IMG/VR virus record: IMGVR_UViG_3300020171_000031
Coordinates: 1-59,359 of that record
Strand: one strand, 5' to 3'
DNA from: a virus
Lineage: Duplodnaviria > Caudoviricetes
Length of the DNA stretch: 59,359 nt
The notes under the pieces are model-generated. The model was not told where the DNA came from and searched no databases. It worked only from the letters and a program-made list of their open reading frames with translations. Shown in pieces: positions 1-36,263 of this stretch (position 1 is the stretch's first letter; each line of letters opens with the position of its first letter). A program made the position numbers and the translations under genes.

Positions 1-109
1 TCTGCCACTGGTAGTTCTTAACGGCACCCGCTGTTTGCTCAAGCGTGACGCGCACCCCAAACCTATTGGGCTGCATCTCGACGCAGATGGCCTTGACGCC
101 ATCCAGCAG
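1..109. repeat. Terminal overlap identical to 59251-59359 (circular contig)
   Basis: Exact 109-bp match between both ends; an ORF reads through the join. Confidence 0.97.
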
Positions 110-952
110 GCCGCCGTCTATTCCGCTATAAGCTTCATAATCCATGAGCCACCACGCGACGCCTGGCGTCAGGCGCTCGTAGTATCTAATAACCGTAGTA
201 TCGCCACCCACCATGAGGTCCAGGTCTATCTTCACCACGCGAGGCTCGAACTCCCCCGCAGGGCCCGCATTGATGTACACGTTGTCCTCGGTGCCCAGGC
301 CGGTGGCTGTGACCACACCATTGTCCTCGTCCAGTGTCAACTCGGCGCTCACCAGCGCCAGTATGGCGGCGATGCTCACGCCCGACGTGATGGCGGCAGC
401 TATGGAGGGGTGCAGCAGCAGTATCTCGTCCCCGATACCCACGGCAGCCGTGAACGCAGCAGCCAGGAGGTCCCCGGTCGCTGTATCGTAGGTGACGATG
501 GGCTGGGACTCCCCTTGGGGCGCAGCAGCCAGGCCCCCGGCGTCCCGCAACACGTAGGCCGAGTAGGCTGTGGCACCGGGCTCGAACTTGCTGGCCCCCA
601 ACCCGGCGAGGGTGGGGATGGTGAACCCATCGGCGAAGGGGACGGCGGTGACGACCCCATAGTAGGAGAGCCCGGCCGTCCCCTGGTCCGGGCCGCTAGC
701 TAAAGGGATTATGGCATACGTCTCCCCCAGAGCGATTCCGACGGTCCAGTTGGTGCCGACTGTCAGGGTGTTGGCAGTGTTGGTGGTGATGAGCCGCACC
801 TGGCCGTGACAGAGCACAATGTATCGCGCTCCAGCCAGGAGGTTTACGGGCCAGTCGCGCAGGGTTACACCGTCTCCGCATTGGAGTGTGTTGGTCCCTG
901 CTCCCGCTGCAGCCGCAACCCGCCCCTCGTCAAAGACTGCTAAGCTGATCAT
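1..952 (-). CDS. Putative virion structural protein, 322 aa, spanning the origin (952->1, then 59250->59234)
   Basis: Manual translation MISLAVFDEG...GVRVTLEQTAGAVKNYQWQRLAEE*; missed by the ORF track because it wraps; beta-rich, lies in the structural operon. Confidence 0.8.
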   Translation of the reverse strand, partial: MISLAVFDEGRVAAAAGAGTNTLQCGDGVTLRDWPVNLLAGARYIVLCHGQVRLITTNTANTLTVGTNWTVGIALGETYAIIPLASGPDQGTAGLSYYGVVTAVPFADGFTIPTLAGLGASKFEPGATAYSAYVLRDAGGLAAAPQGESQPIVTYDTATGDLLAAAFTAAVGIGDEILLLHPSIAAAITSGVSIAAILALVSAELTLDEDNGVVTATGLGTEDNVYINAGPAGEFEPRVVKIDLDLMVGGDTTVIRYYERLTPGVAWWLMDYEAYSGIDGGLLDGVKAICVEMQPNRFGVRVTLEQTAGAVKNYQWQ

Positions 953-965
953 CGTTAGCTCCTAC

Positions 966-1085
966 CTATCCAGCCCTGGGCTGGACAAAGTACACAGTAT
1001 CCTTCCCGCACTTGGGGCAGGTCACGACACGCTGCTCCACCTCTTTCAGGCTCAGGTTCCCACAGTGCTTGCACTTGACCGTCAT
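966..1085 (-). CDS. Small zinc-ribbon protein (39 aa)
   Basis: MTVKCKHCG...TCPKCGK; TGATG coupling to the upstream gene; below the ORF track cut-off. Confidence 0.7.
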   Translation of the reverse strand: MTVKCKHCGNLSLKEVEQRVVTCPKCGKDTVYFVQPRAG

Positions 1086-1627
1086 CACACCCATATGTAA
1101 CTCCCTAATTTCCTGTATCCGATGACCCACACCTTCCCCTCGGCGGCGTTGAGCGGGCTGAGGTTGGTTATGTCGATCCGGAGCACGCTGGCGACGGTGA
1201 GGTCCTCCAGTAGACTACGTGTCCACCCTACCTGAAACACATTCGTGGGCTTCGCGTTGGCTTCGCTGTACCCGATGCAGCTAACGTCGTTGTACGTGCC
1301 TCCCTGGAAGAAGTCGTAGCGCACAGGCTGGTTGAAAGAGACCCAGAACTCCTTGAGGAGGTAGTCCCACCCTGGCAGAATGGCAATCTGCGGGAGCCCC
1401 GTGAAAGCATCTATGGCCTGGGCCGTTGCTCCGGGCGCAATCGGGGGCGCCGTTATCGCAGAGGGTCCGGGAACCAGGCTGAACAGGGTGGTGAGCCACA
1501 GGTACTCCTCGCCCACCTCGCGCTCATACCCATAAATCTGCTTCGCGCGCCATGTCTCGCCAGTGTAATCCGGCTTGCCCTTCCCGACCGCGACAATACC
1601 GGGTATGGGAGTAGCTGTCTGTCCCAT
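1085..1627 (-). CDS. Putative structural protein (beta-rich)
   Basis: GAGGAG RBS, tight packing, alternating beta-strand pattern. Confidence 0.65.
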   Translation of the reverse strand: MGQTATPIPGIVAVGKGKPDYTGETWRAKQIYGYEREVGEEYLWLTTLFSLVPGPSAITAPPIAPGATAQAIDAFTGLPQIAILPGWDYLLKEFWVSFNQPVRYDFFQGGTYNDVSCIGYSEANAKPTNVFQVGWTRSLLEDLTVASVLRIDITNLSPLNAAEGKVWVIGYRKLGSYIWV

Positions 1628-1628
1628 T

Positions 1629-1967
1629 CTACTCCTCCTCTACTACTTTCACTAGGGCGCTGATGGTGTGCGGGTTGATGGCATCCGTGTTGCGAACCTC
1701 AAACCACAGCTGCTCGCTCGGCGTGATGGGCTCGTTGAACTCGATGGTCTCGGTGACAGCATCGAGGGCCAGGAAAGTGCCGCTGCCATCGGGGCAGAAC
1801 TGCGTCCGCCCTTTCCCCAAGGCCACGAGGACGAGCGAGTTGCAGCCCGGGGGCCAGTGGATTTTCACCATCGTGATGGTGCCCTTGATCTGGCGGTCAT
1901 CCTGTACGCGCACTCCCGTGGCCGCGGCCACGATCGCCCTGAACGGCACTTGGATTATCCTGCCCAT
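1629..1967 (-). CDS. Putative minor capsid/penton-like small beta-sandwich protein
   Basis: AGGAGG RBS; 112 aa all-beta pattern; function inferred from context. Confidence 0.55.
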   Translation of the reverse strand: MGRIIQVPFRAIVAAATGVRVQDDRQIKGTITMVKIHWPPGCNSLVLVALGKGRTQFCPDGSGTFLALDAVTETIEFNEPITPSEQLWFEVRNTDAINPHTISALVKVVEEE

Positions 1968-1979
1968 ACTAGGCCCTCC

Positions 1980-2288
1980 TCACTTGTCGAGGCTCCGCGA
2001 GAGCAGCACAGACAGCCGCTCGTTCTGCACCGCTATCGAAGTGCTCAAGATGTGGACCGAATCGCTCTGCCGGTCCATCTTGGCGGCCAGCGTGGTAACG
2101 GCCTCCGCCATCTTGCCTGTTGCCTGCGCCATCTCGCCCACCTGATGCGCCATCTCGCCCACCTCGTGTGCGAGGGTCGGATTCTCCCTCGGCGTCATCC
2201 GCTGCTGAATCAACCCCCGCACAGCCGTCCCCAGCACCCCCGCGAGGGCGCCAGCGAGTCCTATCACCGCGGCCAATACAGGGTCCAT
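1980..2288 (-). CDS. Membrane-anchored coiled-coil protein
   Basis: AGGAGG RBS; N-terminal TM (VLAAVIGLAGALAGVLG); 21-bp/heptad repeat HEVGEMA-HQVGEMA. Confidence 0.75.
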   Translation of the reverse strand: MDPVLAAVIGLAGALAGVLGTAVRGLIQQRMTPRENPTLAHEVGEMAHQVGEMAQATGKMAEAVTTLAAKMDRQSDSVHILSTSIAVQNERLSVLLSRSLDK

Positions 2289-2365
2289 TCGGCATCCTCC
2301 TAAATCAATGAGGGGAAGGAAGGCCGCCGGCCCTCCTTCCCCTCTCCACTGTCCTGCTGACAAGC

Positions 2366-2566
2366 CTATGGTTGCCGGCGCTTGGGCGCTACCTTGGGCT
2401 TGTCTGGAGCTGCGGCCTTCGCCTCTGGCGCCGTGGACGTTGGCTCCGCTCGTCGTCGCGGCTTGTAGTCCGGGTCACAATGCCTCTCGGCGAATGTCAC
2501 CAACTCCGCGCGAGCGATGGGCTTTCGCGGCACGTAGTCTGGGTCATAATGTCTGGCCACTGTCAC
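2366..2566 (-). CDS. Small basic protein with a duplicated RHxDPDY motif
   Basis: GAGGAGG RBS; RHYDPDYVPR / RHCDPDYKPR. Confidence 0.65.
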   Translation of the reverse strand: MTVARHYDPDYVPRKPIARAELVTFAERHCDPDYKPRRRAEPTSTAPEAKAAAPDKPKVAPKRRQP

Positions 2567-2585
2567 CTCCTCGCGTCCTCCTGCG

Positions 2586-3518
2586 CTACGGATCGCACTC
2601 GATGTTGATGTACATCATGCCCTGTGGGCCAGCGGGAACACCCACGGCCGGGAGGGCCAGCGCGCTCTGCGTGATGGGTATGAGGGCACCGGCGTACTGG
2701 AAGGACCGCACGCCTGCGTAGAACGGGCCGACCAGCTGCACGCTGCCGTCCTGGTTGTCCCAGACGAGCTGCCGCTCCTCGATGTTCTGGCCCTCTGTGC
2801 CGCCACCGGAGACGACGAACCCGGGGCCCCAGGTCTGAATCCATTGGAACTGTCCGGCCAGGCCCTCAACCAGCGGTATCCCCAGGATGGTGAGGTACTG
2901 AAGGTTCGGGTTGTTGATCGCCTCGGCGGTGGCCTGGTTCGGCGAGTACACATCGGCGTACTTGCTGCGGAAGAGCGCACACGCGCTGCCTGCCGCTACC
3001 GCCATGGGGAGCGGGTCCTCCAGGACCAGCGTGATGGTGACGCCGCCTCCAGCCGCGACCGGCTGGGTGAGAATCCGGCAGGTCACGCCGTAGGCCAGAC
3101 CGCCACCGATGTTGATGTACCCGCCGTTGAACCGGCCGGCCGGGATGGCTGCGGCGGAGACGTATTGGAGGGTTGTGCCTCCCGCGATACCCGCCACCGC
3201 GCCCGTGACGCTGGTTTCGTCCGACCCGGCCCACACGCCGGAAGCGACGCCGAAGCCCAGGTCCAGCCGGGTGGGGAACGCGGTCATGCCGTAGCTGCCG
3301 TCCTTGACCCGGGCATAGCGGAATACCCGCTCGCCCATGTGCATGCGGGTCCCGATGCTGTATCGCTGGATCGCGGAGGCCTCCGTGGGCCACTGGTCCA
3401 CCCCGGTCAGCTTGGCGCCGGACGTGATGTTGAAGGATGCGCGCCCGGAAGGCATGAGACCCTGGAGTATGTCCCCGACGACCCTCAGACCCTGTATGTA
3501 ACCGAATCTCTTAGCCAT
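2586..3518 (-). CDS. Putative virion decoration/spike protein
   Basis: GTRMHMGERVFRYAR and FQWIQTWGP motifs resemble capsid decoration proteins; Gly/Ala-rich. Confidence 0.55.
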   Translation of the reverse strand: MAKRFGYIQGLRVVGDILQGLMPSGRASFNITSGAKLTGVDQWPTEASAIQRYSIGTRMHMGERVFRYARVKDGSYGMTAFPTRLDLGFGVASGVWAGSDETSVTGAVAGIAGGTTLQYVSAAAIPAGRFNGGYINIGGGLAYGVTCRILTQPVAAGGGVTITLVLEDPLPMAVAAGSACALFRSKYADVYSPNQATAEAINNPNLQYLTILGIPLVEGLAGQFQWIQTWGPGFVVSGGGTEGQNIEERQLVWDNQDGSVQLVGPFYAGVRSFQYAGALIPITQSALALPAVGVPAGPQGMMYINIECDP

Positions 3519-3614
3519 GTTCCTCTTCCTCTTTCTGGGCCGCTTCTCCCACGGGGGAGCATATCATCCGAGGCGACCCGCCGTATAGTCCAGCTTCAAG
3601 GCGCGGACTGCCTA

Positions 3615-3953
3615 TCACGCGTACTCATCCTCGTACCAGATGTCCACGTCGCAGTTGCCCACGTCGGTCTGCAAGTTCACCTGCGCCCCACCCTGCGCGA
3701 CGTACAGGGCCAGCGCGTTGTCCAGCATAACGTTTGGAGCTTCGAAGCGGTCTCCCGCGAGGACATGGAAGAACGTGTCCACGACCACTCCAGCCAGCGC
3801 CACGCGGAGGCTCAGCGTGTTGGCGGCCGCCGCGCTCTGCGTGGCGATGGCGTAGATGTACCGCTTCATGCCCGCCGGGACTACCGTACCGATGTTGACG
3901 ACGGCCAGGCCAGCCGTTGCCCGTGCTCTTGTGAGTCCTTGACGAGTTGGCAT
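3615..3953 (-). CDS. Putative small structural beta-sandwich protein
   Basis: Abuts the upstream gene; beta-strand pattern. Confidence 0.55.
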   Translation of the reverse strand: MPTRQGLTRARATAGLAVVNIGTVVPAGMKRYIYAIATQSAAAANTLSLRVALAGVVVDTFFHVLAGDRFEAPNVMLDNALALYVAQGGAQVNLQTDVGNCDVDIWYEDEYA

Positions 3954-4655
3954 CTACGCCCTCCCCTCCATCACGTCTCGGCCCCACTTGAGCGCCTCGG
4001 GACCGCCTGCGAGGTCCTTCAACCAGCTGGGGATAGTCTCGGGTTCGGGGTCAATCCCGCCCACTGTGTAGAGACGGCGGCGTCTCTCCCCCAGCAGGAC
4101 CGGCTTGGCCTCTTCCCGCCTCGTGATGATCTGATAGCTGTACCGCATGACCTCGAAGTGCATGTTGATGTTCGTCATGGCGTCAGCCAGCGGGTTGAGC
4201 GCGTTGTACGCCGGATACTTGCCACGCGGGATAAAGAGCTCCGTCTTGCAGGAGAAGGGCCCCTCAAACGGCGACTGTTCTCCCGGCACGTACCCGATGT
4301 TGCCCGTGATGGGGCGCGTGGCGGAGCCCAGTGAGTTGCGGTCTCGCCGCGACTGGTACTGGGTGAAGATGCGCACCTTGGGGTGGTTGACGCCCCAGAA
4401 CACGTGGTTGAGCCACTTGTTGTCCGCCGGCTCCAGCATCCTGACGTTAGCGGCGGTGGGGTCCAGCACTTCGTTCCACGCGACCAGGTTGGCGCCCGTG
4501 GCCAGGGCGGCGACGAGCAGGAACGGCTCGATGTTCGAGTGCTCGCGGCCCGTGATTCTGAAGGTGACCCACCCCTCCTGGAACTGCATACAGAGCAGGT
4601 AGCCCTCTTGCAGCCAGAAGTCCTCGTGGCTCTGCTTTATCAGAGCGGTCTGCAT
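3954..4655 (-). CDS. Putative capsid-associated protein (candidate second jelly-roll capsid protein)
   Basis: GAGGAGG RBS; follows the candidate MCP; fold is inference only. Confidence 0.45.
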   Translation of the reverse strand: MQTALIKQSHEDFWLQEGYLLCMQFQEGWVTFRITGREHSNIEPFLLVAALATGANLVAWNEVLDPTAANVRMLEPADNKWLNHVFWGVNHPKVRIFTQYQSRRDRNSLGSATRPITGNIGYVPGEQSPFEGPFSCKTELFIPRGKYPAYNALNPLADAMTNINMHFEVMRYSYQIITRREEAKPVLLGERRRRLYTVGGIDPEPETIPSWLKDLAGGPEALKWGRDVMEGRA

Positions 4656-4700
4656 AAACCCTCCTCCCCAACCTTCTCTTGCGAGAAGGAAGGTTTTACC

Positions 4701-4736
4701 AGGAGGGGCTGGGGCCAGCCCAGCCCCAGCCCCTCC
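4701..4736 (-). terminator. GC-rich hairpin after the candidate MCP
   Basis: ggaggggctgggg ... ccccagcccctcc inverted repeat; no clear U-tract. Confidence 0.5.
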
Positions 4737-4745
4737 AACTTGGTT

Positions 4746-5456
4746 CTACACCCAGACCGGAATGAGCTCGTTCAGGACGCGCCCATAGCCTACGACCAGG
4801 CCACCCCACTCCAGCTCGGCGTTGCCGTTCACATCCGCCTTGATGGCGCTGAACAGCTGGACGCGCGGCTCCGCGTAGACCGTCGGGATGGGCAGGATGC
4901 TCACCTGGTTCTCGTTGTCACCCACCCGTAGGGACCGGCACGGCTGCGGGATCAGGACCGTGCGCCCGATGGAAAAGCGGTACTCGCTCTCCAGCGGGGT
5001 GGGGGTGACCAGCGCGGTCAGGTGCGTGATGATGAGGCCGAAGTCCTGCCCCACCTGGTATCCCACGCCCGCCGCGTTGCTGGCGAAGTTGGTCCACGCG
5101 TTGGCCACCAGGGCGAGCTGGAGCCAGTTGGTGCGGTAGGCGCCCGCTATCTGGACGAACTGCGGGCGGATGAGCTGGAAGCCCAGCTCGGTGTCTCCCG
5201 GGTTGAGGCCACGGAACGGCGGGCCGTTCAGCTTCTCCTTGACCGCCCGGATGCCCGCCACGTAGGCGTCGATGCGCTGCATCTGGAGTATGCGCTGAAT
5301 GCTGGTGGGCGGGGCCAGCAGCGTGGGTAGCTGCGCATTGATATACTCCAGCTCCTGCGCGTCCAGCGAGGCCAGGTTGTACGACTGGTTGTACAGCCGC
5401 AGAGGCCCCGGGGTGTTGACTTCCGCCAGTGAGAGATTTCTCCACTGCACGTCCAT
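4746..5456 (-). CDS. Candidate single jelly-roll major capsid protein (236 aa)
   Basis: AGGAGG RBS before MDVQW; second gene after a sigma70-type promoter; followed by a strong hairpin; helical N-half plus beta C-half ending ELEWGGLVVGYG. Confidence 0.5.
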   Translation of the reverse strand: MDVQWRNLSLAEVNTPGPLRLYNQSYNLASLDAQELEYINAQLPTLLAPPTSIQRILQMQRIDAYVAGIRAVKEKLNGPPFRGLNPGDTELGFQLIRPQFVQIAGAYRTNWLQLALVANAWTNFASNAAGVGYQVGQDFGLIITHLTALVTPTPLESEYRFSIGRTVLIPQPCRSLRVGDNENQVSILPIPTVYAEPRVQLFSAIKADVNGNAELEWGGLVVGYGRVLNELIPVWV

Positions 5457-5511
5457 GTGGTCCTCCTGATTCATTCCGTTTGGGTCAGGTTGGGGTCAGC
5501 TCGGGGAAGGC

Positions 5512-5892
5512 TTACACCTTCAGTTCGTTCACGTTCTGCACGTTCCGGAACGTCTCCGTGTTCTGGAGGCCACCGACTCGGCGGCCCGCCGTTAGGGCTG
5601 GACGCTGTACAGCGCCACCCACCACCCTGGTGGTTATGGCGGCAGGCCACAGCTTCTGGATGGCGAAGTGCCCGATGCTGCCTGCGCTGCTCGACGCGAC
5701 GCCGAGGCCGATGTCGGACAGCAACCCGCGCTGTGAGAGCGCCAGAAAGAGTCCGCCCACGGCGCCGCCGAACGTCACGATGGTCCCGAGGCTCTGGTTG
5801 AACCGGTAGGACGCCGCCTCGGCGAAGCCGGCCACGAACGCCGAGCCCACTATGGTCACCTTGGTCTGCTGGTCCGCGGTCATGAGCGCCAT
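5512..5892 (-). CDS. Gly/Ala-rich membrane protein, first gene of the capsid operon
   Basis: AGGAGG RBS; 2-3 hydrophobic GxxxG helices; basic tail. Confidence 0.75.
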   Translation of the reverse strand: MALMTADQQTKVTIVGSAFVAGFAEAASYRFNQSLGTIVTFGGAVGGLFLALSQRGLLSDIGLGVASSSAGSIGHFAIQKLWPAAITTRVVGGAVQRPALTAGRRVGGLQNTETFRNVQNVNELKV

Positions 5893-5985
5893 CGTCTATC
5901 CTCCTAGCGTTTTGGAGTCTGGAATCACAAAACAATACCCGGAGAGCCTGTTCTGCGACTCCAGGCTCCCCGGGTACGACAAGGA

Positions 5986-6014
5986 AACTCTAACGGTCGG
6001 TAAGGCACTTGTCA
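5986..6014 (-). promoter_or_regulatory. sigma70-type promoter of the capsid operon
   Basis: TTGACA-17-TAGAGT on the minus strand. Confidence 0.65.
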
Positions 6015-6653
6015 AGCCCCTATTCGCGCTCTGGTTTGGAAATTGTCCTCCACCAGGCCCGGGCGCAAGACCTCCAGCTCCACATCGTTGAACCGGAGCC
6101 ACTCCTCATACGGAGGGCCATCGGGCACTATGGACGCCACACTGACGGGCTTCTGTGTCGTCTCCAGCCTCCACCGGCTTCCATCCCCGGCCACCACTTG
6201 GACCCACGCGTGGGCGATGGGCCACCCCTTGCCTCTCCACAGCCCCATCAGGACATACACCTGTTGCGGGCTGAGCCAGTGGCGCAGGATGGAGCAGACG
6301 GTGAACGAGGTGCCCTCACAGTCGTCAACACCCATCGCGAGGCTCTCGGCTGGAAAGTTCCAATAGTCGTTGGTCGCATCCTGTCGCAGCATCGGCACCT
6401 TCTCCCACACCTTGATGCCGCCACCACCACGTCCCGCCAGGGCGGCGGCGAAGTGGTAGTCGTAGGGCTGCGCGGACGGATACGTGATGCGGTCCGTCAC
6501 CGCCTTCCAGGTGGAGTAGAGCATCTCCCACGGGTCCCCTTCCGGGATGGTCGCCGCCACCATCTGCACGGCGGCGCTGTCCGGCTGGATGAACTCGCGG
6601 ATGTCGCGTACCTCGCCAAAGAGGCGACGACGCACCAGGAGCTGATTCGCCAA
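6012..6653 (-). CDS. Transglutaminase-like (papain-fold) cysteine protease
   Basis: DDCEG ... HAWV ... LETT catalytic triad pattern; TTG start inferred. Confidence 0.8.
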   Translation of the reverse strand: MANQLLVRRRLFGEVRDIREFIQPDSAAVQMVAATIPEGDPWEMLYSTWKAVTDRITYPSAQPYDYHFAAALAGRGGGGIKVWEKVPMLRQDATNDYWNFPAESLAMGVDDCEGTSFTVCSILRHWLSPQQVYVLMGLWRGKGWPIAHAWVQVVAGDGSRWRLETTQKPVSVASIVPDGPPYEEWLRFNDVELEVLRPGLVEDNFQTRARIGA

Positions 6654-6661
6654 TCGCTTCC

Positions 6662-7429
6662 CTATACGGTGACGTACGGGAGGGCGAACCCGATGAGGTG
6701 CCCCATGACGGCCAATGCCACCTGCTTGGTGTCCGTCGGCGTCTGGGCGAGGATCTTGAGCTGAGGCGCTATCGCCCACAGCTCCACCCACGCGTCCACC
6801 CAGTAGCCCCCGGGCAGGGCCGGGGTGATGCGCTGGAGCTGTATGACTGCTGACGTTGCGGCTTTGGCCAGCACCACGTCGGCGAAGTCGTCGTAGGGGG
6901 CGCCCTGTCGCACGTCGTTCTCGTCGGATATCTGCGTGTACAGATGCACCCGGAATGTGGTCTGCAGATTGCCGTCGTTCACTACCTGTCCCTGGGTTGC
7001 GATGGTGGCCATGTCGTTTCCTCCTGGTGGTGTTACTACCTCGACTGGGAACTGCGTTATGGTGCCCATGATGTACTGCTGAATCAGCGTCACGTCGGCC
7101 TGCGTGACAACGCCGTCGCCGTCAACATCCGCTCGCAGCAGCACATCCACCGTCATACCCATCTGGTCCAGAACTTGCTGCTCGGTGAAGGGGCCGTACT
7201 GGATGTCACCCGTCTCATCGAACCTTATCCAGTAAATGAAACAGGCGTTCTCTACCCAGTAGCTATAGCCGGTGATTCTGATACCGTAGCCCGCGAAGTA
7301 GACTTGGTCCCACCTACGTTCGCCAACGGCTACTGGCGGATACAGCACGTTGAAGTCGGCGATGCGCTGCGCTAGCAGCACGTCGCCCATGTCAATCCAG
7401 CCGTCGCTATTTACGTCACCATAGTACAT
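6662..7429 (-). CDS. Dockerin-domain protein with an inserted domain and C-terminal beta domain
   Basis: GDVNSDGWIDMGD and ADVDGDGVVTQAD Ca-binding loops. Confidence 0.75.
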   Translation of the reverse strand: MYYGDVNSDGWIDMGDVLLAQRIADFNVLYPPVAVGERRWDQVYFAGYGIRITGYSYWVENACFIYWIRFDETGDIQYGPFTEQQVLDQMGMTVDVLLRADVDGDGVVTQADVTLIQQYIMGTITQFPVEVVTPPGGNDMATIATQGQVVNDGNLQTTFRVHLYTQISDENDVRQGAPYDDFADVVLAKAATSAVIQLQRITPALPGGYWVDAWVELWAIAPQLKILAQTPTDTKQVALAVMGHLIGFALPYVTV

Positions 7430-7438
7430 GCTGGCCTC

Positions 7439-7612
7439 CTACGGCACCATTATGGAGATTGCCCACCCCTGGAGGGTGCCCTCGACCTGTTCTGGCGGCT
7501 TCGGCTTCATCGCCTGCACCACGACCACGGTGCCCACGGCAGCGGCCACCCCCGCCAGGAGGACCAAGCCAAGATGTGACTTGTCAGCTTTGTCGCGGGG
7601 CTTATCTGTCAC
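7439..7612 (-). CDS. Small single-TM membrane protein (57 aa)
   Basis: AAGGAGG RBS, GTG start; LGLVLLAGVAAAVGTVVVV; manual translation. Confidence 0.7.
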   Translation of the reverse strand: MTDKPRDKADKSHLGLVLLAGVAAAVGTVVVVQAMKPKPPEQVEGTLQGWAISIMVP

Positions 7613-7623
7613 CTCATCCTCCT

Positions 7624-8223
7624 TCAGAGAAGCGCAATAGATAGTTCAGGCTGCGGCACACCCGCATACGTGGCGAGAATCGCAATCCCCGCCGCGACCT
7701 CCTGCCCCAGGGTAAACGCCGGGTCAAAGGTGTAGGCTCCCAGCGCCTTGATAAGCTCAAAGTTGTCCGGGTCCACCTGGAGCGCCTGTACCACCACCTT
7801 GAAGGGCGCTCCGGCATGCCGGTTCCAGAAGTCGCGGGCCTGTTGCGAAACCCGCGTCCCGGCCAAATGGAGGCTCGTGACGCCCTGCACGCTAGAACCC
7901 GCGGGCACCGGCATCAACTCCGCCCCCGGGTACGCCTGGTGCACCCCACCACTCTCGCTTGCCATGATGTCGCGCACCATCCCGGGCCCGCCCTCGCGTA
8001 TCAGGGGGGTGTAGACCCACCACTCCACGTCGCTGCCCCACGCCTTCTTCTCGATGACCCACACCTTCAGCCCGACGTAGCCCAACTGGCTGCCGCTGTT
8101 CGCGACACCCCAGCGGAGGTTTATGCTCATCTGGAAGGCCGGGAGCGGCACCACCCCTAGATCCCCGACGAGGAAGGCACCGACTCGCGGCGCAGACCGC
8201 GTTCCAAACTGTCTCATCGTCAT
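7624..8223 (-). CDS. Hypothetical structural protein (Ig-like pattern)
   Basis: GGAGGGGAG RBS before MTMRQF; the track start overlaps the upstream gene. Confidence 0.6.
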   Translation of the reverse strand: MTMRQFGTRSAPRVGAFLVGDLGVVPLPAFQMSINLRWGVANSGSQLGYVGLKVWVIEKKAWGSDVEWWVYTPLIREGGPGMVRDIMASESGGVHQAYPGAELMPVPAGSSVQGVTSLHLAGTRVSQQARDFWNRHAGAPFKVVVQALQVDPDNFELIKALGAYTFDPAFTLGQEVAAGIAILATYAGVPQPELSIALL

Positions 8224-8231
8224 CTCCCCTC

Positions 8232-8612
8232 CTATCCGTCGGACACGACTGTCAGGATGGGTATGCCGACCGTTGCTAGCCCAGTGCCCTCGCCTACTCT
8301 GATAGGCGCCTGCGCCGCCCCCCAATCTTGCACCAGCGCGCCCTCCTTGCCTCGCAGCACGATTCGCCAGTCCACATCGGCATTTGCCCAGTCGCCCGGT
8401 ATGCGATTCCACAGCTCGATGGTCGTTGCCCCGCCAGGTGGACAGGTTGACGGCGTCCAATCTGGCAAGCCCTGCTCTTGCGGCTCCAAAATGGTGTTGC
8501 GGCCCCGGTTCTTCAGGCTGACCTGGAACTCTTTTACCAACGACACAGGACCCGTGTTGCGCCAAGCGAGCGTAGCCACCACGTATTCTCCGGCGTACAC
8601 TTCAAGGGGCAT
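8232..8612 (-). CDS. Ig/CARDB-like structural protein
   Basis: LAWRNTG...CPPGG pattern, similar to the neighbouring gene (IAWTNMG...VAPG). Confidence 0.6.
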   Translation of the reverse strand: MPLEVYAGEYVVATLAWRNTGPVSLVKEFQVSLKNRGRNTILEPQEQGLPDWTPSTCPPGGATTIELWNRIPGDWANADVDWRIVLRGKEGALVQDWGAAQAPIRVGEGTGLATVGIPILTVVSDG

Positions 8613-9198
8613 AGCTGCCCTCCGCCCTAATCTCTACCCCGAGGACCTCCACAAAGGCCTCAGCCTCGCTTGCGATGGTCAGCACGTCCTCCCGCAGCCA
8701 CCATGCCCCCTCCAGGCCGATGAGCATGAGCTTGAGGTCTATCGTGGTCGTGTTGGGCCAGGACTTCGGGACGGTGATGGAGGTGGCCGATGTCACCACT
8801 GACACTCCAGGCGCTACGCTGGGCGAGCTGGCCTTCGGCCCCTCCTGCCATGTTGCCGTGGCACCCGTTCGCCGTAGGGCGAATTGGAACTGGGGAGCCA
8901 CGGCCTTAGCGCCCATATTCGTCCAGGCGATATCCGCGATAAGCGGGACGCCACCCAAAATAGGGACGTCGGTCATCCCCTCTTCCCAGATAGGCAGGCC
9001 CTCTGGGGTCCGAACCACAACTTCGTCCAGGCGTATATCCGCAGGGTTAGTGCCCTTTCGCCGCGTGAAATACCATACGGCGCCTGCCGCAACACCCCCC
9101 ACCACAACCAACGGCAGCAGCTGGCCCATGATGCCGCCACCTCCCGTTTGCACAATTATCACACGCTCGGGGGGTTGATTCATGGGCTGCTGCGTCAT
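8602..9198 (-). CDS. Membrane-anchored Ig-like protein
   Basis: GAGGAG RBS; TM LLPLVVVGGVAAGAVWYF followed by RRK. Confidence 0.7.
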   Translation of the reverse strand: MTQQPMNQPPERVIIVQTGGGGIMGQLLPLVVVGGVAAGAVWYFTRRKGTNPADIRLDEVVVRTPEGLPIWEEGMTDVPILGGVPLIADIAWTNMGAKAVAPQFQFALRRTGATATWQEGPKASSPSVAPGVSVVTSATSITVPKSWPNTTTIDLKLMLIGLEGAWWLREDVLTIASEAEAFVEVLGVEIRAEGSYAP

Positions 9199-9344
9199 CT
9201 GCTCCTCCCCATCCGGGCACGCGCCGGGAGGCCGCCGGGCAGCAGAACCTGAAGGGCACAACAAGAGGGAAGCCCCCTCAGGGGCTGGATAAAACGCTCC
9301 GCGCGCTCCCCGTTCAGACGCTCCGCCACCGCGCAGGTCAGCAT
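9195..9344 (-). CDS. Possible small protein (49 aa)
   Basis: AGGAGG RBS; ATGA overlap with the next gene. Confidence 0.35.
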   Translation of the reverse strand: MLTCAVAERLNGERAERFIQPLRGLPSCCALQVLLPGGLPARARMGRSR

Positions 9345-9391
9345 GAGCGTCCTCCTGGTGAAGTCAGCCTATTCTACCACAGTCGTTGCGG

Positions 9392-9541
9392 CAAGGCGAC
9401 TGCCTACTTTAGCTGGCAGAGGAATCGCCGCTCGCCTCCTTGTGCTATAATATGTCTATGCAGACCGCCGTGGTCATGGTAACCGTAACCTCGTAAGTTC
9501 CGTGTCGGAAGCCGTCTACTTTAGCTGACGGAGGATGTCAC
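9392..9541 (+). mobile_element. Non-autonomous IS200/IS605-family miniature element (both ends, no ORF)
   Basis: Left hairpin ctgcc-tactttagct-ggcag-agga and right hairpin ccgtc-tactttagct-gacgg-aggatgtcac; resembles tnpB-element ends. Confidence 0.6.
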
Positions 9542-9550
9542 TCTACCACG

Positions 9551-10246
9551 TCAAGCAAAGAATGCCGATGTGCTGGCCAGTTGCAGCACCAGGTCCTCCA
9601 CGTCCACATTGGGCCACAGGTCCCAGCTTCCCATGATGCCGCTATCCGGTAGGTCAGGCGCCAAGAGGACGAGGTGCAGCACCTCGTGGACGAGGGCGCC
9701 GGTCTGCGCATCAGGGGTCACGAAGCCCCATTTGTCCTGCCGCGGAATCTCGGGGAATATGATGTCAATGACCGCGCCGGGGTTCCCCAGTATGGACTCG
9801 ATGGCCACGTCGCCCAGCATCGCAAACCGGTCCTGCGGCATGGAGCCTGCGAAGCCACCACCTCCGCGCGTCAGCACAACCCAAAGCTCGGTGTCCAAAG
9901 GTCGTCGTCCGACGTATTCCACCAGCTGTTGGAGCACGTAGGCGGCAACATCTCCCGTCTCCGCGATGTTGCGCACGTACCCGTAGGAGTCGGGCAGCGT
10001 TAGAAATACCGGCGGGGCTTCGGCGTTCAGGGTACGCCCCGACCCCACCTTGTCCGTAATCCAGTTGACCCCCATCAGCCAGCGAGCAATGAGGAGCTGC
10101 GTCTCATCTGCGGTGAACGGCCTGTCCACCGGTGCCAGCACGTACGCTCTGACAACAGCACTGCTGGCATACGCCCGCTTGGTGAGTACCCTGACCGCGG
10201 CTATTGCCCCGAGACCGGCGAGAGCCCATGCCCAACCCGTTTCCAT
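9551..10246 (-). CDS. Membrane-anchored zincin metallopeptidase
   Basis: N-terminal TM; HEVLH motif and downstream GIMG Met-turn. Confidence 0.75.
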   Translation of the reverse strand: METGWAWALAGLGAIAAVRVLTKRAYASSAVVRAYVLAPVDRPFTADETQLLIARWLMGVNWITDKVGSGRTLNAEAPPVFLTLPDSYGYVRNIAETGDVAAYVLQQLVEYVGRRPLDTELWVVLTRGGGGFAGSMPQDRFAMLGDVAIESILGNPGAVIDIIFPEIPRQDKWGFVTPDAQTGALVHEVLHLVLLAPDLPDSGIMGSWDLWPNVDVEDLVLQLASTSAFFA

Positions 10247-10363
10247 CAGCCGCTAGGCCTCCGCTTCGAGCTCGTCCACAGCAGGGCGCCGCAGAACAGG
10301 ACCATCATGGCGGCCACGCCGAGCCAGGTCATCGGTATTTGGCCCCGCTACTGGCGAGGTGGT

Positions 10364-10819
10364 TTACGTGACCTTGCCGTGGAGAACGTCCAGCATCACC
10401 CGGGTGGCCCGCCGCTTCTCCGGTTCCAACCACGGGCGATTCCGCTCTGCCCGGATAACCAGAACTTGCGCTGGGTGGCGCGTTGCCACGTGGTCCAACA
10501 CCTTCTCCCAGTCCAATGCCGTGACAATCGGCTCCAGGTTGTCTACTCCTAGCTGCAACAGGTCCTTTATGCCGCCCACACGCAGCTCCGGTGGAATACC
10601 CCGCGCCCATGCCTCGATGAGGGATTGGCGGGCGTCTATGAACTTCTGCAACCCGTCCGGCGTGAACTGGCCGATGAGGTCCGCCAGTCCGGGCATGTGG
10701 AAACGCTTGCCCGTGCTCCTGACATCATGGTCCATGCCCAGCGCCACTTTGCGCTGCACCTTCAGCCGTATGAAGACGGGACCCACATCGGAGGCCACGT
10801 TCAGGAAGTGCTTCATCAT
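10364..10819 (-). CDS. Hypothetical protein
   Basis: ATGA overlap with the upstream gene. Confidence 0.6.
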   Translation of the reverse strand: MMKHFLNVASDVGPVFIRLKVQRKVALGMDHDVRSTGKRFHMPGLADLIGQFTPDGLQKFIDARQSLIEAWARGIPPELRVGGIKDLLQLGVDNLEPIVTALDWEKVLDHVATRHPAQVLVIRAERNRPWLEPEKRRATRVMLDVLHGKVT

Positions 10820-11979
10820 GCTAGGGCGCCCTCGGGCGCCGGAGCCTCCGCGGACGCCGCAGCCTCCGTGGGCGCAGGTTGCGCCTCCGGCGCTTGAGGC
10901 GTCAGCGCGACCTGGACGCCACAGTGCGGACAGAACATCTGCGGCTTGAGCTGCGCCCGGAGGACCATGAACTGGCCCTTGCAACCCGCACAGGCCAGAA
11001 CGAGAGTCTCCTGCGCCTCGGCGGCGGCGGCGGGCTCCGGCTTGGCCCCATTGGGAGCAGCCTCTTCTAGCGGCTTGTTGCCCACCGGGACGCCGCTCCC
11101 CTGGGCGTTATAGGTGCGCGCCGTCTCTCTAAACGCCCCGATGAAGTCGCCGAGGTTCTCGGTCACCAGATTCTTCGCCTCCTCCAGCATCCGGAGGCGC
11201 CGCTTCTCATTCTCGTCCGTCAGGGTGATCTTCCGTTGCTCCCGCGCATCCTCCAGGTCCATCTTGCGCCACTCGATGGCGAACGAGGGGGGGACGTTCC
11301 CCAGGTCCTTGATGGCGAGTAAGCCCTGCGCCGGGGTGGCGGCCACCACCTGGTCTCGCGGCACGAAGCCCATCATCAAGGCCATCTTGCCCATCCCGTC
11401 CCGTATAGAATCCATGCTGGTGAAGAAGCTGCCCAGAACGTCGAGCGCGGTCGGAGCGGCAGCCGGCTTCTCCGCGACGGGCTCCGTCCCGTCCCGTATG
11501 CCGAACATCCGCATCTGCAACTTCGTCTTGACCTCCGGCGTGAGTTGCCCGACGCCCATCGCCTCGCCCAGGTCGGGGGCGGGTTTGCTTGCCGTCTCTT
11601 TGGCCTTTGCCTCAATGCGTTCCAACTGCGCGGTGAGGTGGGCTTCCCGCTCCTCATGGAGCGTCTGCTCCGCCTGAGTGGCGGCCTGGCCGGCGGCCGT
11701 AGCGCCCTCGCGCAGCTCCTTCATGATTTCGGAGTAGTTGAGACCCAGCGCCTTGCCCGCCTCTATCATGTCGCTGAATGGGCTGGCCGGCTTCTGCCCG
11801 TTCGTGTCCGTCTTGACCGCATCGCCCATCGCCTTGTTAATCTGGATGGCAGACAAGACTTCGGCCGTCTTGGTCATCCGACCTATGAGCTTGTCATACA
11901 CCGTGTCGGACTCCACTACCGGCGCCTTGCCTTCGGGAGTACGCAGTGGTATTGGGAGAGTCTTGCCTTCAAGCGCCAA
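10816..11979 (-). CDS. Coiled-coil protein with C-terminal zinc ribbon
   Basis: AGGAGGT RBS; CAGC...CPHC. Confidence 0.75.
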   Translation of the reverse strand: MALEGKTLPIPLRTPEGKAPVVESDTVYDKLIGRMTKTAEVLSAIQINKAMGDAVKTDTNGQKPASPFSDMIEAGKALGLNYSEIMKELREGATAAGQAATQAEQTLHEEREAHLTAQLERIEAKAKETASKPAPDLGEAMGVGQLTPEVKTKLQMRMFGIRDGTEPVAEKPAAAPTALDVLGSFFTSMDSIRDGMGKMALMMGFVPRDQVVAATPAQGLLAIKDLGNVPPSFAIEWRKMDLEDAREQRKITLTDENEKRRLRMLEEAKNLVTENLGDFIGAFRETARTYNAQGSGVPVGNKPLEEAAPNGAKPEPAAAAEAQETLVLACAGCKGQFMVLRAQLKPQMFCPHCGVQVALTPQAPEAQPAPTEAAASAEAPAPEGALA

Positions 11980-12571
11980 CTCGCACCTCCTGTTTCTGTT
12001 GTTTCTGTCCGTCAGGGGAGAGCAGCTGCGGGAATAGCCTCCCCAACTGCAACTCGTCGGCGTGCTCGTAAAAGTAGCGCGTCACTATCTCGAAGATGAA
12101 CTCCCCCACGCTGGGTTGGTACGCCGGAAACTGAGTGCAGGCCAGGTCGTACAGGACGAGTATGCGGGAGTCCAGCTCGACCTCCTGCGTAACGAAGCGA
12201 CCGCGCAGCGACGCCGTCGTCTCGGGCGCGCTAACGCCGGCGGGCCCCTCCACGGGCTTACCAGACGAACTCTTGTTCAGTAACCCCTTGGACGAGGCTG
12301 TAGAGGAGCTCTTTTCGTCGAAGCCCATCTTGGAGGCGATCATACGGTTCGGCGCTACTACCTCGCCCGTGTCCTCCTTGACCAGGCCCCGGAGGTGATG
12401 CGTCTCCTTCTTCTTGCGCCCATGGGCGATGTGTGTGGTCAGGTCGAAAGTATATCTGTCGAAAGCCGCGCCACAATCGCAGTACCAACGATAGCCCGGA
12501 TGGGGATTGGGGCGGGCGGGCGGGCGCTCGGACGCGGTTGGGGCGTCGGGTCTCTCATCGGGGGTTGGCAC
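11969..12571 (-). CDS. C2H2-like zinc-finger protein
   Basis: CDCG...HIAH; GGAGG RBS before GTG; TTGACA-17-TATCCT upstream. Confidence 0.65.
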   Translation of the reverse strand: MPTPDERPDAPTASERPPARPNPHPGYRWYCDCGAAFDRYTFDLTTHIAHGRKKKETHHLRGLVKEDTGEVVAPNRMIASKMGFDEKSSSTASSKGLLNKSSSGKPVEGPAGVSAPETTASLRGRFVTQEVELDSRILVLYDLACTQFPAYQPSVGEFIFEIVTRYFYEHADELQLGRLFPQLLSPDGQKQQKQEVRVGA

Positions 12572-15957: not shown

Positions 15958-16791
15958 ATGGCGTGGATTCAAGTGCATCAGAGCCTGCCAACCCACCGCA
16001 AAACCCTGGCGGCGGCGGCCATTTTAGGGGTGTCGGGCGTGCAGATGGTCGGGCATCTGGTCACTTTCTGGCTCTGGTGTTTGGATAACGCACCTATGGG
16101 CCAGCTAGGCGAAACGCCCAATGCGGTGATTGCCAGCGCGGCCCTCTGGCCCGGGGAGCCAGACGTTTTCGTATCTACTCTTTGCAGCACGCGACTCCTG
16201 GACGGAGCGCCGGGCAACTTGGCAATCCATAACTGGCCGCAATATGGCGGCAAGCTGGTCGAGAGCCGGACCCGGGACGCCGCCCGGCAGCGGGCCTTTC
16301 GCGAGCGCGCACGGCCACCTGTATCTGATGGAGCGTTACCGTTACGTAACGGGTACGTCACGGGTACGTCACGCGCTAGAGTAGAAGAGAGTAGACTTAG
16401 TACTCCTAAGGAGAGTATAGATAAACAACAGTCTGAGGGAGAAGATACTCCGCGCGCGCGGAGTCACGCGCGCATAACGTCGGCAGCGGCATTGTTGGCC
16501 CTCTTCTCACCCACTGAGATGATGAACATAAAGACGCGGTTCAACGGCACCGACTTGGAGTGGGAGGCTGCGAAGTGCGTTGAGTGGCACAGCGCGAAGA
16601 CGAAGGGTGGCCTCCGTAACGGTAAGCTGGGCTTTCGCAATTGGTTGGACCACTGTAAGCAGCGGGAGGTGCGAGATCGAGGAGTCGGAGGAGTCGGAAA
16701 ACCCTATCAGTTCACGAACGCGGGGGACGCGGGGCCTGACGAGTCTCACGAGACTCCTGCCTCGGATGACGCGGGAGGTAGCGCAGTGTAG
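15958..16791 (+). CDS. Phage replication initiator (replisome organiser)
   Basis: MAWIQVHQSLPTHRKT...GHLVTFWLWCLD...IHNWPQYGG; internal iterons; precedes dnaC and dnaB. Confidence 0.85.
   Translation: MAWIQVHQSLPTHRKTLAAAAILGVSGVQMVGHLVTFWLWCLDNAPMGQLGETPNAVIASAALWPGEPDVFVSTLCSTRLLDGAPGNLAIHNWPQYGGKLVESRTRDAARQRAFRERARPPVSDGALPLRNGYVTGTSRARVEESRLSTPKESIDKQQSEGEDTPRARSHARITSAAALLALFSPTEMMNIKTRFNGTDLEWEAAKCVEWHSAKTKGGLRNGKLGFRNWLDHCKQREVRDRGVGGVGKPYQFTNAGDAGPDESHETPASDDAGGSAV
16334..16372. repeat. Iterons inside the initiator gene (putative origin)
   Basis: cgttaccgttacgtaacgggtacgtcacgggtacgtcac followed by an A-rich tract. Confidence 0.65.
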
Positions 16792-17536
16792 CTGCGGTAG
16801 CTCTTTCGCGCGCTATCGCGGGTTGCCTGTGCTACGGGAGGTCTGCGAGAAGTGCATCGCTGCGCAGATGCGGCAAAGCAGGCTCGACGCTCTTGCGCGA
16901 GTGCGGGAGGGCTTCAGACCGAAGAGCGGGATGCCGTACTTGCTGTGGGGCAAGACGTTCGCCACGTGGAAAGGCAAGTCCGCAGCGGTGACCACCGTGA
17001 GGGCGTGGGTTGACGCGTTTCCCCGGACTGCGCGTGGCTATCCATCGCTCTATCTCTTTGGACAGAACGGCGTCGGTAAGACCCACCTGGCCGCCGCGTG
17101 CTGCAACGCGCTCATTGACCGGTGGGACGGCGATACCAGCTCGGAGCGGCTGAGTCCCGTTCGGTACATCACGGCGCCGGCACTCTTGGCCCGGGTGCGC
17201 GCAACCTACAGGCCGGACTCCGCAGAGACGGAGGACGCCGTATACGAGGATCTCAGCCATGCGCCTCTCCTGGTGGTGGACGACGTGTTCAAGGAGACGG
17301 CGGCGGCTGGCCAGGACGACGCGCTCGTCTCCTCCCACACGCAGAGAGTGTACTTCCGCCTGATTGACGAGCGTTATGGGCAGGTCCTGCCCGTCTTACT
17401 GGTCAGCAACACGCCATTGGCGAAGCTGGAGACCCTCCTGGGCCGGGCGACCGCGTCCCGCATAGCCGAAATGACGCAGCACCGGTTTGTCCAGGTGGCG
17501 GGGCCTGACCACCGGCGGGGGCGTGATGTACACTGA
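16766..17536 (+). CDS. dnaC: DnaC/IstB-like helicase loader ATPase (start uncertain)
   Basis: Walker A GQNGVGKTHLA, Walker B LLVVDD, LIDERY, SN, SRI motifs. Confidence 0.9.
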   Translation: MTREVAQCSCGSSFARYRGLPVLREVCEKCIAAQMRQSRLDALARVREGFRPKSGMPYLLWGKTFATWKGKSAAVTTVRAWVDAFPRTARGYPSLYLFGQNGVGKTHLAAACCNALIDRWDGDTSSERLSPVRYITAPALLARVRATYRPDSAETEDAVYEDLSHAPLLVVDDVFKETAAAGQDDALVSSHTQRVYFRLIDERYGQVLPVLLVSNTPLAKLETLLGRATASRIAEMTQHRFVQVAGPDHRRGRDVH

Positions 17537-18965: not shown

Positions 18966-19189
18966 TAACCGCGCCGGCCGGGAGAGGCTGCTGGCATTGC
19001 GAGGGCGTCCCGGTCGAGTGGGTTCAAGCGCCGGCCGGAAGGGTGGGGCTCTGCCTGGAGTGCGTGCTGCGCTGGTTCCCCCAGTGGACCGTCCACGAGT
19101 GGGAGATTCGGCACGCGCCGGAGGCGGACCACCTGGGAGTTCGTTTGGCAAGGCATGCGCGTCCAAATGGCGCAAGGAAGGTAGTATGA
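18962..19189 (+). CDS. Small zinc-finger protein
   Basis: CWHC...CLEC; GTGA/ATGA coupling on both sides. Confidence 0.6.
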   Translation: MITAPAGRGCWHCEGVPVEWVQAPAGRVGLCLECVLRWFPQWTVHEWEIRHAPEADHLGVRLARHARPNGARKVV

Positions 19190-31061: not shown

Positions 31062-31137
31062 GCGCGGTTGCGCCTCCCCCAGGAGGGCCGAGACGGCTCC
31101 GCCATCTTGGGGGAGATGCAAACGAAAGGAGATGTGC

Positions 31138-35761: not shown

Positions 35762-36048
35762 AAACAATCTGGAAGTACGCATTGTTGGTCGCGGACCGCC
35801 AAGAGCTTCAGATGCCCACTGGCGCTAACTTCCTGGCTGTCCAGGTTCAACGGGAGGAGATATGCCTGTGGGCCCTCGTTGACACTGACAACCCATTGGT
35901 AGGGCGCCGCATTCACACTTATGGGACAGGGCAGGGGCTGGGTGAGCTTGGCACCTACATCGGCACCTATCAGCTACGGGGTGGGGGGCTGGTGTTCCAT
36001 GTCTTTGAGGAACGACGCAGCGGTCTTGGCGGAGATCCGGCTGCATGA
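35758..36048 (+). CDS. Conserved phage protein (MKTIWKY...VFHVFE)
   Basis: Motif recognised from phage proteins; ATGA overlap. Confidence 0.7.
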   Translation: MKTIWKYALLVADRQELQMPTGANFLAVQVQREEICLWALVDTDNPLVGRRIHTYGTGQGLGELGTYIGTYQLRGGGLVFHVFEERRSGLGGDPAA

Positions 36049-36263
36049 GCGAGGAGCGGCGCATCGGGATGAGAAAGGTGGGCCCGTGGGTCTATTGTGG
36101 CCACGGGCCGGAGGGTCTCTTGTGGGCGGCGCCCTCGGACATCGGGAACCTCGTCATCCTCCGATGGGTAAAACTGGGCTGGTGGCCGCTCATCCGGGTT
36201 CACGAGACTTGGGTGGAGCGGGACAGGCTCCTGAATGCCATTGAGAAGGGGGTGCTCAAGTGA
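36045..36263 (+). CDS. Hypothetical protein
   Basis: ATGA/GTGA coupling. Confidence 0.55.
   Translation: MSEERRIGMRKVGPWVYCGHGPEGLLWAAPSDIGNLVILRWVKLGWWPLIRVHETWVERDRLLNAIEKGVLK

Follow-up and report, generated by a model that had tools for sequence, protein, structure and literature searches.

We suggest that the 59,359-nucleotide window analysed here, which is the whole assembly of IMG/VR record IMGVR_UViG_3300020171_000031, is the genome of an undescribed lineage of tailless viruses whose particles would be icosahedral and would be filled without a packaging motor of the virus's own. We put the probability of this reading at about one half. The window carries replication genes typical of tailed phages on one strand and, on the other, an operon in which we detected no hallmark family of tailed phages and no packaging ATPase. 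This operon holds adjacent genes of three protein families, here called F0, F1 and F2, that recur in the same order in related loci, and they are followed by the gene of a 310-residue protein with the fold of a capsid cement protein. Judged from the gene content, the shell would most likely consist of F0 and F1 together with the 112-residue F2. An earlier note, made from the letters of the window, had proposed a jelly-roll virus; the absence of hallmark genes and of a packaging ATPase and the existence of a conserved core speak for that proposal, whereas the jelly-roll fold is unproven, a weak model of F0 (template modelling, TM, scores of at most 0.38) being its sole lead.

The genome is closed, as the earlier note had claimed: the first 109 bases of the window equal the last 109, IMG/VR files the record under 'direct terminal repeats', and CheckV gives it a completeness of 100. 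The window thus holds a unit genome of 59,250 bp plus a 109-bp terminal repeat. Its gene map was drawn from the guanine-plus-cytosine (GC) content at codon positions, which places a plus-strand arm at 12648 to ~47300 and a minus-strand arm from 12601 down through the repeat to ~47700; the morphogenetic operon lies on the minus strand, starting at 12601 and extending through the repeat as far as about 54800. All three stop codons end genes (35 TAG, 23 TGA and 10 TAA), and no tRNA genes were found in the window. When the two halves of the minus arm were compared by Megablast with 50,697 phage records, no match appeared.

We compared 60 open reading frames (ORFs) of the window with Pfam, including every coding-frame ORF of at least 200 residues, 20 with PHROGs and 10 with NCBIfam; none matched a family of terminases, portals, HK97 capsids, tape measures or tail proteins. 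With all six frames of the window read through stops, TerL_ATPase, Terminase_6N, Phage_portal, Phage_capsid, FtsK_SpoIIIE and Pox_A32 gave 0 matches at E ≤ 1; in the positive control each of these families turned up in between 3 and 14 of the 14 genomes. The searches include the check for FtsK/A32 ATPases and terminases that the earlier note had proposed, and they uphold its statement that genes for a terminase, portal, HK97 capsid, tape measure and tail are not to be found in the genome.

A six-frame scan for the Walker-A pattern [AG]xxxxGK[ST] returned eight matches, three of them in real ATPases (a DnaC/IstB-like loader, DnaB and MoxR), which the note had correctly named as the only obvious P-loop proteins. 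The remaining five lie in non-coding frames or non-ATPase contexts. No coding-frame ORF of the minus-strand operon carries the canonical pattern, which a deviant Walker A could escape. In addition, the only minus-arm ORF of more than 400 residues encodes a β-helix protein, so the operon contains no portal- or TerL-sized ORF. A 484-residue ORF in the plus arm (24118–25572) was considered as a hidden terminase or portal and rejected, being of low complexity and coiled-coil, with no P-loop and no library matches. When 14 window families were aligned by hhalign to nine head-module clusters of tailed phages (capsid, portal and terminase-sized proteins), the best probability was 9%, and with the verified portal cluster (C2) it was at most 0.4%. 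The window thus lacks a detectable terminase large subunit, the mark of Caudoviricetes, and also an FtsK/HerA-type (A32-like) ATPase beside capsid genes, the mark of Helvetiavirae; as far as its sequence tells, it does not appear to be a detectable member of Caudoviricetes. Prokaryotic viruses of Bamfordvirae (Tectiviridae, Corticoviridae and similar) combine an A32-like ATPase, absent here, with a double jelly-roll capsid protein. No double jelly-roll candidate was identified, fold evidence covering only a minority of the ORFs, and the model of the 310-residue protein had no double jelly-roll match among the matches listed.

The loci recovered by a profile search with F0 number 42 in metagenomes, one in IMG/VR and six in species-representative genomes, which are metagenome-assembled genomes (MAGs). 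Clustering all ORFs of 43 kin loci together with those of the window gave the locus counts of the gene families (Table 1). The four ORFs that the earlier note had singled out exist as described, except that the longest ORF of the first reaches 5474, position 5456 being an ATG at residue 7, where the ESM Atlas record starts; its top two candidates, F0 and F1, turned out to be better conserved in the lineage than any other gene (43 and 34 loci). The gene order in kin is F4 (an Ig-like membrane protein), F5 (a Cys/His protein), a membrane protein of ~145 residues (F7, F8 or F10), F0, F1, F2, a variable gene that we call the slot, F3, F17, F9 and variable large spikes; further upstream stand a coiled-coil zinc-ribbon protein and a membrane protein with an HExxH motif (family F12, with the motif plus membrane spans). 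Within ±10 kb of the kin loci, no cluster common to different kin contigs contains a Walker-A protein, and the sole clustered ORF of more than 500 residues is a 693-residue protein seen once, L030 and L064 being the same contig.

The conserved core has few recognisable relatives. F0 has five homologues among 5.8 billion proteins, at 43–50% identity, and no PHROG; F1 has no Pfam or PHROG match; and the best result of PDB-profile searches was for both a chance match at E 1.1. Pfam searches at E ≤ 1 with 89 members of F0–F3 returned no family in more than three members, and hhalign found no profile similarity between F0 and F1. The two genes share a frame with one stop between them, and a readthrough or recoding link was ruled out, since all three stops are in use and F1 has its own ATG. 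A complex prediction for F0 with F1 gave no answer, the fold of the partner being uncertain, and counts neither for nor against binding. The ESM Atlas model of F0 is of low confidence (predicted TM score, pTM, 0.60; predicted local distance difference test, pLDDT, 0.59); its neighbours are its own family, a 178-residue viral cluster and then only β-sandwich domains (GH115_C, CIA30, GldH) at TM ≤ 0.38, with no HK97 neighbour. F0, F1 and F2 are probably β-sandwich (jelly-roll-like) proteins, and for F2 one might guess at a penton-like role. In kin, one locus has an extra F1 paralogue upstream of the core (L035, 5776–6381), and another has two adjacent paralogues of F35, a concanavalin A (ConA)-like slot protein, where the gene map shows three (L053, 6547–8119). 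So shell and surface genes appear to duplicate within the lineage.

The 310-residue protein has six close homologues among 5.8 billion proteins, whose profile reached 1739 cluster representatives at E ≤ 1e-3. AlphaFold2 prediction from a 7-sequence alignment was unusable (pLDDT 38.4); a 117-sequence alignment yielded a model with pLDDT 85.4 and pTM 0.84. Foldseek with this good model returned nothing from the PDB at E ≤ 0.001 and only unnamed small phage proteins from BFVD, and a sequence-profile search of the PDB with alignment A2 gave 0 matches. In a full VIA-align scan, residues ~60–310 aligned to solved capsid cement/decoration proteins, namely those of FCWL1 (9kmg_a; 8.8; 117 / 142), XM1 (7kmx_a; 8.3; 117 / 160), HFTV1 (8qsy_JI; 8.2; 109 / 136), Pam3 (8hdt_G; 7.8; 124 / 166) and TW1 (5wk1_X; 7.2; 119 / 148). 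In the ESM Atlas the protein falls among viral clusters, the nearest Pfam-bearing one of which carries XM1_gp53_minor_capsid and Phage_cement (score 0.83, a lead only). By its modelled fold, the 310-residue protein is a β-tulip capsid cement protein with homologues in tailed phages. It differs from XM1 gp53, TW1 gp56 and the proteins of FCWL1, Pam3 and HFTV1 in an inserted β-barrel and in a lineage-specific N-terminal anchor, common to unrelated proteins of the same slot, and it has no recognisable HK97 capsid gene adjoining it.

An IMG/VR single-protein locus search with the 310-residue protein itself found no locus. Of 21 IMG/VR loci of distant cement homologues, 14 have a verified HK97-type capsid gene immediately upstream, nine with T7 10A-type capsids (cluster C1) and five with an HK97-family capsid (cluster C4, E 3.6e-26); four have an unverified capsid-sized ORF there and three stand outside the count. 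A portal is also present at such loci (E 2.2e-71). Neither BLASTP nor hhalign (best 9%) found window counterparts of their capsid, portal and terminase-sized proteins. Since the cement homologue directly follows an HK97 capsid gene in 14 of the 21 tailed-phage loci, the genes that precede it in the window, F0-F1-F2, hold the place of a capsid gene by position. The 11 rows of the lineage do not form one clade in a tree of 149 cement-like proteins but are scattered over it (9 label changes). Such scatter may point to repeated exchange with other viruses; as the representatives lack genomic context, we claim no donor.

The slot after F2 is filled differently from one relative to the next. A motif of ~15 residues, roughly MK-R/K-IG-Y/F-I-x-G-x-R, begins 20 of 21 kin genes and the window gene, and past it the proteins fall into at least six unrelated groups (the cement-like F6, F25, the ConA-like F35, F46, F63 and unclustered ones). 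We read the motif as a peptide that docks exchangeable outward domains on the shell of the lineage itself. As 20 of 21 slot genes keep it in spite of unrelated distal domains, the cement domain would be a captured cassette and as such weak evidence for an HK97 shell, and, if the motif does dock, F0-F1-F2 are probably the lattice on which it docks.

We envisage that F0 and F1 form capsomers, with F2 or F3 perhaps closing the vertices. The slot protein would dock by its N-terminal peptide and cement or decorate the surface, its outward part being here a β-tulip domain of tailed-phage origin. Small membrane proteins, recognised by their hydrophobic segments, suggest an internal membrane, and β-helix and lectin-domain proteins might serve as spikes. 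The DNA would be enclosed by co-assembly or condensation without a P-loop motor, a route that PMC8812541 discusses, in the part bearing on this question, for SPV1 and FLiP. Because the genome encodes Ku and a DNA ligase, we infer that linear virion DNA is recircularised on entry. It may be speculated that the MoxR-VWA pair of the plus arm is an assembly chaperone, as proposed in PMC4124505, in its account of the pair, for Acidianus two-tailed virus.

Several observations weigh against this picture. The structural evidence on the shell fold comes down to the low-confidence model of F0, and hhalign to VP16 and VP17 of phage P23-77 gave probabilities of at most 0.3%. By eye, F0 has near its N-terminus a predicted-helical stretch of ~27 residues that could recall an HK97 spine helix. 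All β-tulip cement proteins solved to date sit on HK97 capsids, and every cement match belongs to a tailed virus, which favours an HK97 shell; the cement homologue, which the earlier note had not listed, also blurs its clean 'non-caudoviral' picture. The view of the kin is mostly limited to ±10 kb, so that they may hold a more distant packaging gene. One of the kin, G002 (40.3 kb at a rated completeness of 68%, hence a full genome of about 59 kb), encodes in its remainder DnaB, a DnaC-like protein, ParB and, beside ParB, a 242-residue generic AAA protein, which looks more like a partition than a packaging protein. Finally, the roles assigned above are read from the genome, the particle, its lipid and its proteome being predictions.

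One competitor to a tailless virus is a very divergent tailed phage, or HK97-capsid phage, whose capsid, portal and terminase have drifted beyond sequence recognition and whose cement protein sits on an HK97 shell. Such a phage would account for the true homology of the 310-residue protein to tailed-phage cement proteins, for the company that cement genes keep elsewhere (they adjoin an HK97 capsid gene at 14 of the 21 loci and lie near a portal), for the replication arm and for the Atlas clusters nearest F0 and the 310-residue protein, which are mostly Uroviricota where the phylum is known. We nevertheless consider it unlikely. With no Walker-A ATPase beyond DnaB, the DnaC-like loader and MoxR, a terminase-type motor appears to be missing; no portal- or TerL-sized ORF exists in the operon and none is conserved in the 43 kin loci; the six-frame hallmark searches were empty, and alignment to real head clusters reached 9% at most. 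Moreover, the Atlas model of F0 has no HK97 neighbour, and the lineage-specific anchor carries several alternative cassettes, of which the cement domain is but one.

Two further explanations dispense with a shell of F0 and F1. The particle might be non-icosahedral, membrane-based or pleomorphic, with F0 and F1 as matrix, nucleoprotein or spike-base proteins. The many small membrane proteins and tail-anchored dockerin proteins, the membrane-anchored Ig-like proteins (F4) conserved upstream in kin and the lack of a packaging ATPase would all suit such a particle, as would the MoxR-VWA pair, which acts in virion remodelling in Acidianus two-tailed virus according to the relevant part of PMC4124505. 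Yet a surface protein of cement type whose docking peptide is conserved points to a regular protein lattice, and two adjacent, equal-sized, highly conserved β-rich proteins fit a capsomer pair. Known pleomorphic bacterial viruses, besides, have far smaller genomes, and this explanation seems improbable to us. Alternatively, the window could be a non-autonomous plasmid-like or integrative element, or a satellite, that borrows a helper's capsid or packaging machinery. Its integrase, the ParB and AAA ATPase of one relative, the missing hallmark virion genes and the presence of relatives on MAG-binned contigs fit this idea, which we regard as rather improbable given the conserved co-directional operon of ~20 small genes with a cement homologue, spikes and lectin proteins. 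At 59 kb the element is also far above known satellites, CheckV and IMG/VR rate the record a complete virus (an automatic call), and a borrowed HK97 capsid would leave the conservation of F0, F1 and F2 unexplained.

Taken as a tailless virus, the element would work most like the ATPase-less membrane viruses SPV1 and FLiP and is laid out most like the Halopanivirales, with homology to neither. In P23-77 (Helvetiavirae, Halopanivirales) the order VP15, VP16, VP17, ORF18 resembles F7, F0, F1, F2 of the window, in that two adjacent capsid-sized genes stand after a small membrane-type gene and before a gene for ~115 residues. As in P23-77, SH1 and HCIV-1, many small membrane proteins accompany a tailless particle (for the window, by gene content), and one of the two bacterial-virus families of the group likewise has a bacterial host. 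P23-77, however, has its packaging ATPase, ORF13, two genes upstream, whereas the window lineage is without one; Halopanivirales genomes are given as 16–31 kb, against 59 kb here; and the window, unlike them, has a tailed-phage-type cement protein, no sequence or profile similarity to VP16 and VP17, and a single jelly-roll fold that is at most predicted.

Portogloboviridae (SPV1) and FLiP are described as icosahedral, membrane-containing and without a genome-packaging ATPase in the section of PMC8812541 that deals with them, which bears out the note's statement on portogloboviruses. The absence of such an ATPase is common to SPV1, Finnlakeviridae (FLiP) and the window, so that the former provide a functional precedent for motor-less encapsidation. 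They differ from the window, which is 59 kb of double-stranded DNA with bacterial-type replication genes and Chloroflexota-binned relatives and shows no detected homology to them. SPV1 has a single jelly-roll capsid, an archaeal host and a genome of ~20 kb, and FLiP a 9-kb single-stranded DNA genome. With Caudoviricetes the window has in common RecT, RusA, DnaB, a DnaC-like protein and an integrase, β-helix and lectin spikes, the cement homologue and a typical genome size; what sets it apart from them, by the searches used, is the absence of genes for a terminase, portal, HK97 capsid, tape measure and tail. β-helix and lectin proteins are found in viruses both with and without tails. Almost all known bacterial double-stranded DNA viruses above 20 kb are tailed phages. 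For prokaryotic double jelly-roll viruses, PMC8812541 gives genomes of <20 kbp in its pertinent part.

Table 1. Positions of the terminal repeat and of the genes and gene groups discussed, in window coordinates (aa, amino acids).
Feature	Positions	Strand	Remarks
Terminal direct repeat	1-109		exact 109-base identity with 59251-59359; IMG/VR class 'direct terminal repeats'
F9, 317-322 aa (stop across repeat), fibre- or vertex-like candidate	2-952	-	9 loci; no Pfam or PHROG match
F17, 180-aa β-rich protein	1085-1627	-	4 loci; no Pfam or PHROG match
F3, 112 aa (~196 aa in kin), putative virion-module protein	1629-1967	-	17 loci; no Pfam family
310-aa surface (cement/decoration) protein	2586-3518	-	lineage-specific N-terminal anchor, β-tulip domain, inserted β-barrel (residues 96-185)
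F2, 112-aa small protein after F1	3615-3953	-	22 loci; no Pfam family
F1, 233 aa, second shell-protein candidate, directly downstream of F0	3954-4655	-	34 loci
F0, 242 aa (236 aa from ATG at 5456), prime shell-protein candidate	4746-5474	-	most conserved lineage protein, 43 loci
F7, 126-aa membrane protein directly upstream of F0	5512-5892	-	hydrophobic segment residues 34-52; F7, F8 or F10 there in kin
F5, ~210-aa protein upstream of shell genes	6012-6791	-	10 loci; no Pfam family; candidate Cys/His peptidase by eye
Dockerin-domain protein, C-terminal membrane anchor	6662-7429	-	Pfam Dockerin_1 E 5.4e-9; hydrophobic C-terminus 237-255
231-aa protein, HExxH motif, hydrophobic N-terminus	9551-10246	-	sequence reading; no Pfam or NCBIfam family
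F20, 387-aa coiled-coil protein, C-terminal CxxC...CxxC zinc ribbon (F14 in other kin)	10816-11979	-	operon head; 4 loci
DnaC/IstB-like loader (16580-17536) and DnaB helicase (17487-18965)	16580-18965	+	Pfam; Walker A motifs
444-aa radical-SAM protein, directly after DnaB	18958-20292	+	PHROG 9298 (phage radical-SAM family), E 9.5e-22
MoxR AAA+ ATPase (31132-32178) and 785-aa VWA partner	31132-34487	+	Pfam AAA_5, CbbQ_C, VWA_CoxE
Ku (34964-35761) and ATP-dependent DNA ligase (36260-37207)	34964-37207	+	Pfam Ku E 3.1e-39; DNA_ligase_A_M and DNA_ligase_A_C
Prokaryotic ubiquitin-like conjugation cassette	39417-44164	+	Prok_Ub, unassigned 263-aa ORF, Prok-E2_D, weak below-cut-off Prok-JAB, ThiF-type E1
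643-aa right-handed β-helix protein, spike- or depolymerase-like	54848-56779	-	Pfam Beta_helix E 6.8e-14; lower-GC stretch 0.56-0.57
369-aa spike-like protein	57422-58531	-	BLASTP 31-47% identity to L042, L066; segments common with 1,100-aa kin proteins
F37, 270-aa ConA-like lectin-domain protein	58540-59352	-	Laminin_G_3 E 4.2e-9; PHROG 8510 'virion structural protein' E 5.5e-8

Family matches in the minus arm are limited to Beta_helix, Laminin_G_3, a GT2 glycosyltransferase and two dockerin domains. The Beta_helix and Laminin_G_3 proteins make the spike-like proteins of the earlier note real; its many single-span membrane proteins hold in part. Of the 37 minus-arm ORFs listed, 13 have hydrophobic segments by a Kyte–Doolittle window, about seven of which are convincing membrane spans by eye, the others being Ala/Gly-rich stretches; at least two more hydrophobic ends lie below the threshold (53891–54142 and 52772–53080). 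The dockerin type I domains sit on two minus-strand proteins (6662–7429 and 52772–53080) that lack a signal peptide and have a hydrophobic anchor at the C-terminus, an arrangement unusual for a virus. The GC content of the genome, ~0.64, drops to 0.56–0.57 at 54–58 kb, where the β-helix and spike genes lie, and this dip at 54000–58000 suggests a recent exchange of the receptor-binding module.

On the plus arm, Pfam recognises RecT, two RusA-like proteins, the DnaC/IstB-like loader, DnaB, a tyrosine integrase and a phage zinc-binding protein, in agreement with the caudovirus-like replication module that the note had described. MoxR, whose gene overlaps that of its VWA (CoxE/CobT-like) partner, is the sole non-replicative P-loop protein of the genome. 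Ku and the ligase are separated by small ORFs, and together they suggest end-joining of a linear genome at entry, or end protection; Ku-mediated recircularisation has a precedent in mycobacteriophages. The arm also encodes a DnaJ-domain protein. Of the ubiquitin-like conjugation cassette, all parts but Prok_Ub recur, at 25–42% identity, on a Dehalococcoidia MAG contig that bears an F0/F1 module (L074, 6392–9569).

The hosts of the lineage are probably Chloroflexota (Dehalococcoidia-like) bacteria. Two of the six MAG loci lie in one Chloroflexota MAG and three in Dehalococcoidia/Dehalococcoidales MAGs, and the sixth is on a 2.5-kb contig that was assigned to an Aenigmatarchaeota MAG. A bacterial host is signalled by the genes for DnaB, the DnaC-like protein and Ku and by the five of six MAG loci that come from Chloroflexota or Dehalococcoidia bins. 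The likely source habitat of the window is groundwater. In the relative G002 the ParB-like protein has 731 residues, and the AAA ATPase lies ~900 bp off beyond two small ORFs (L073, 4158–8014). With ParB and an AAA protein in a relative and an integrase in the window, the lineage may switch between episomal and integrated carriage.

We found no description of such a lineage in the literature (main texts). A more specific version of the tailless reading, which we hold only tentatively and think doubtful as a whole, is that of large (~59 kb) tailless viruses of Chloroflexota whose F0, F1 and F2 are either unlike known capsid proteins or a deep ATPase-less branch of the two-jelly-roll viruses, and whose cement domain was captured from tailed phages. 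If the lineage is what we suggest, it would hold six times the DNA of FLiP and three times that of SPV1 without a virus-encoded motor, and it would make testable how a large genome gets enclosed without a dedicated one. The capture of the cement domain would mean that the gene of a virion surface protein has passed from one virus realm to another, and the swappable slot with its docking peptide would offer an experimental handle and show a virion module moving between otherwise unrelated viruses. A recurrent groundwater lineage of this kind would widen the known architecture space of bacterial viruses, and Chloroflexota and Dehalococcoidia, major subsurface bacteria, would gain a distinctive virus group.

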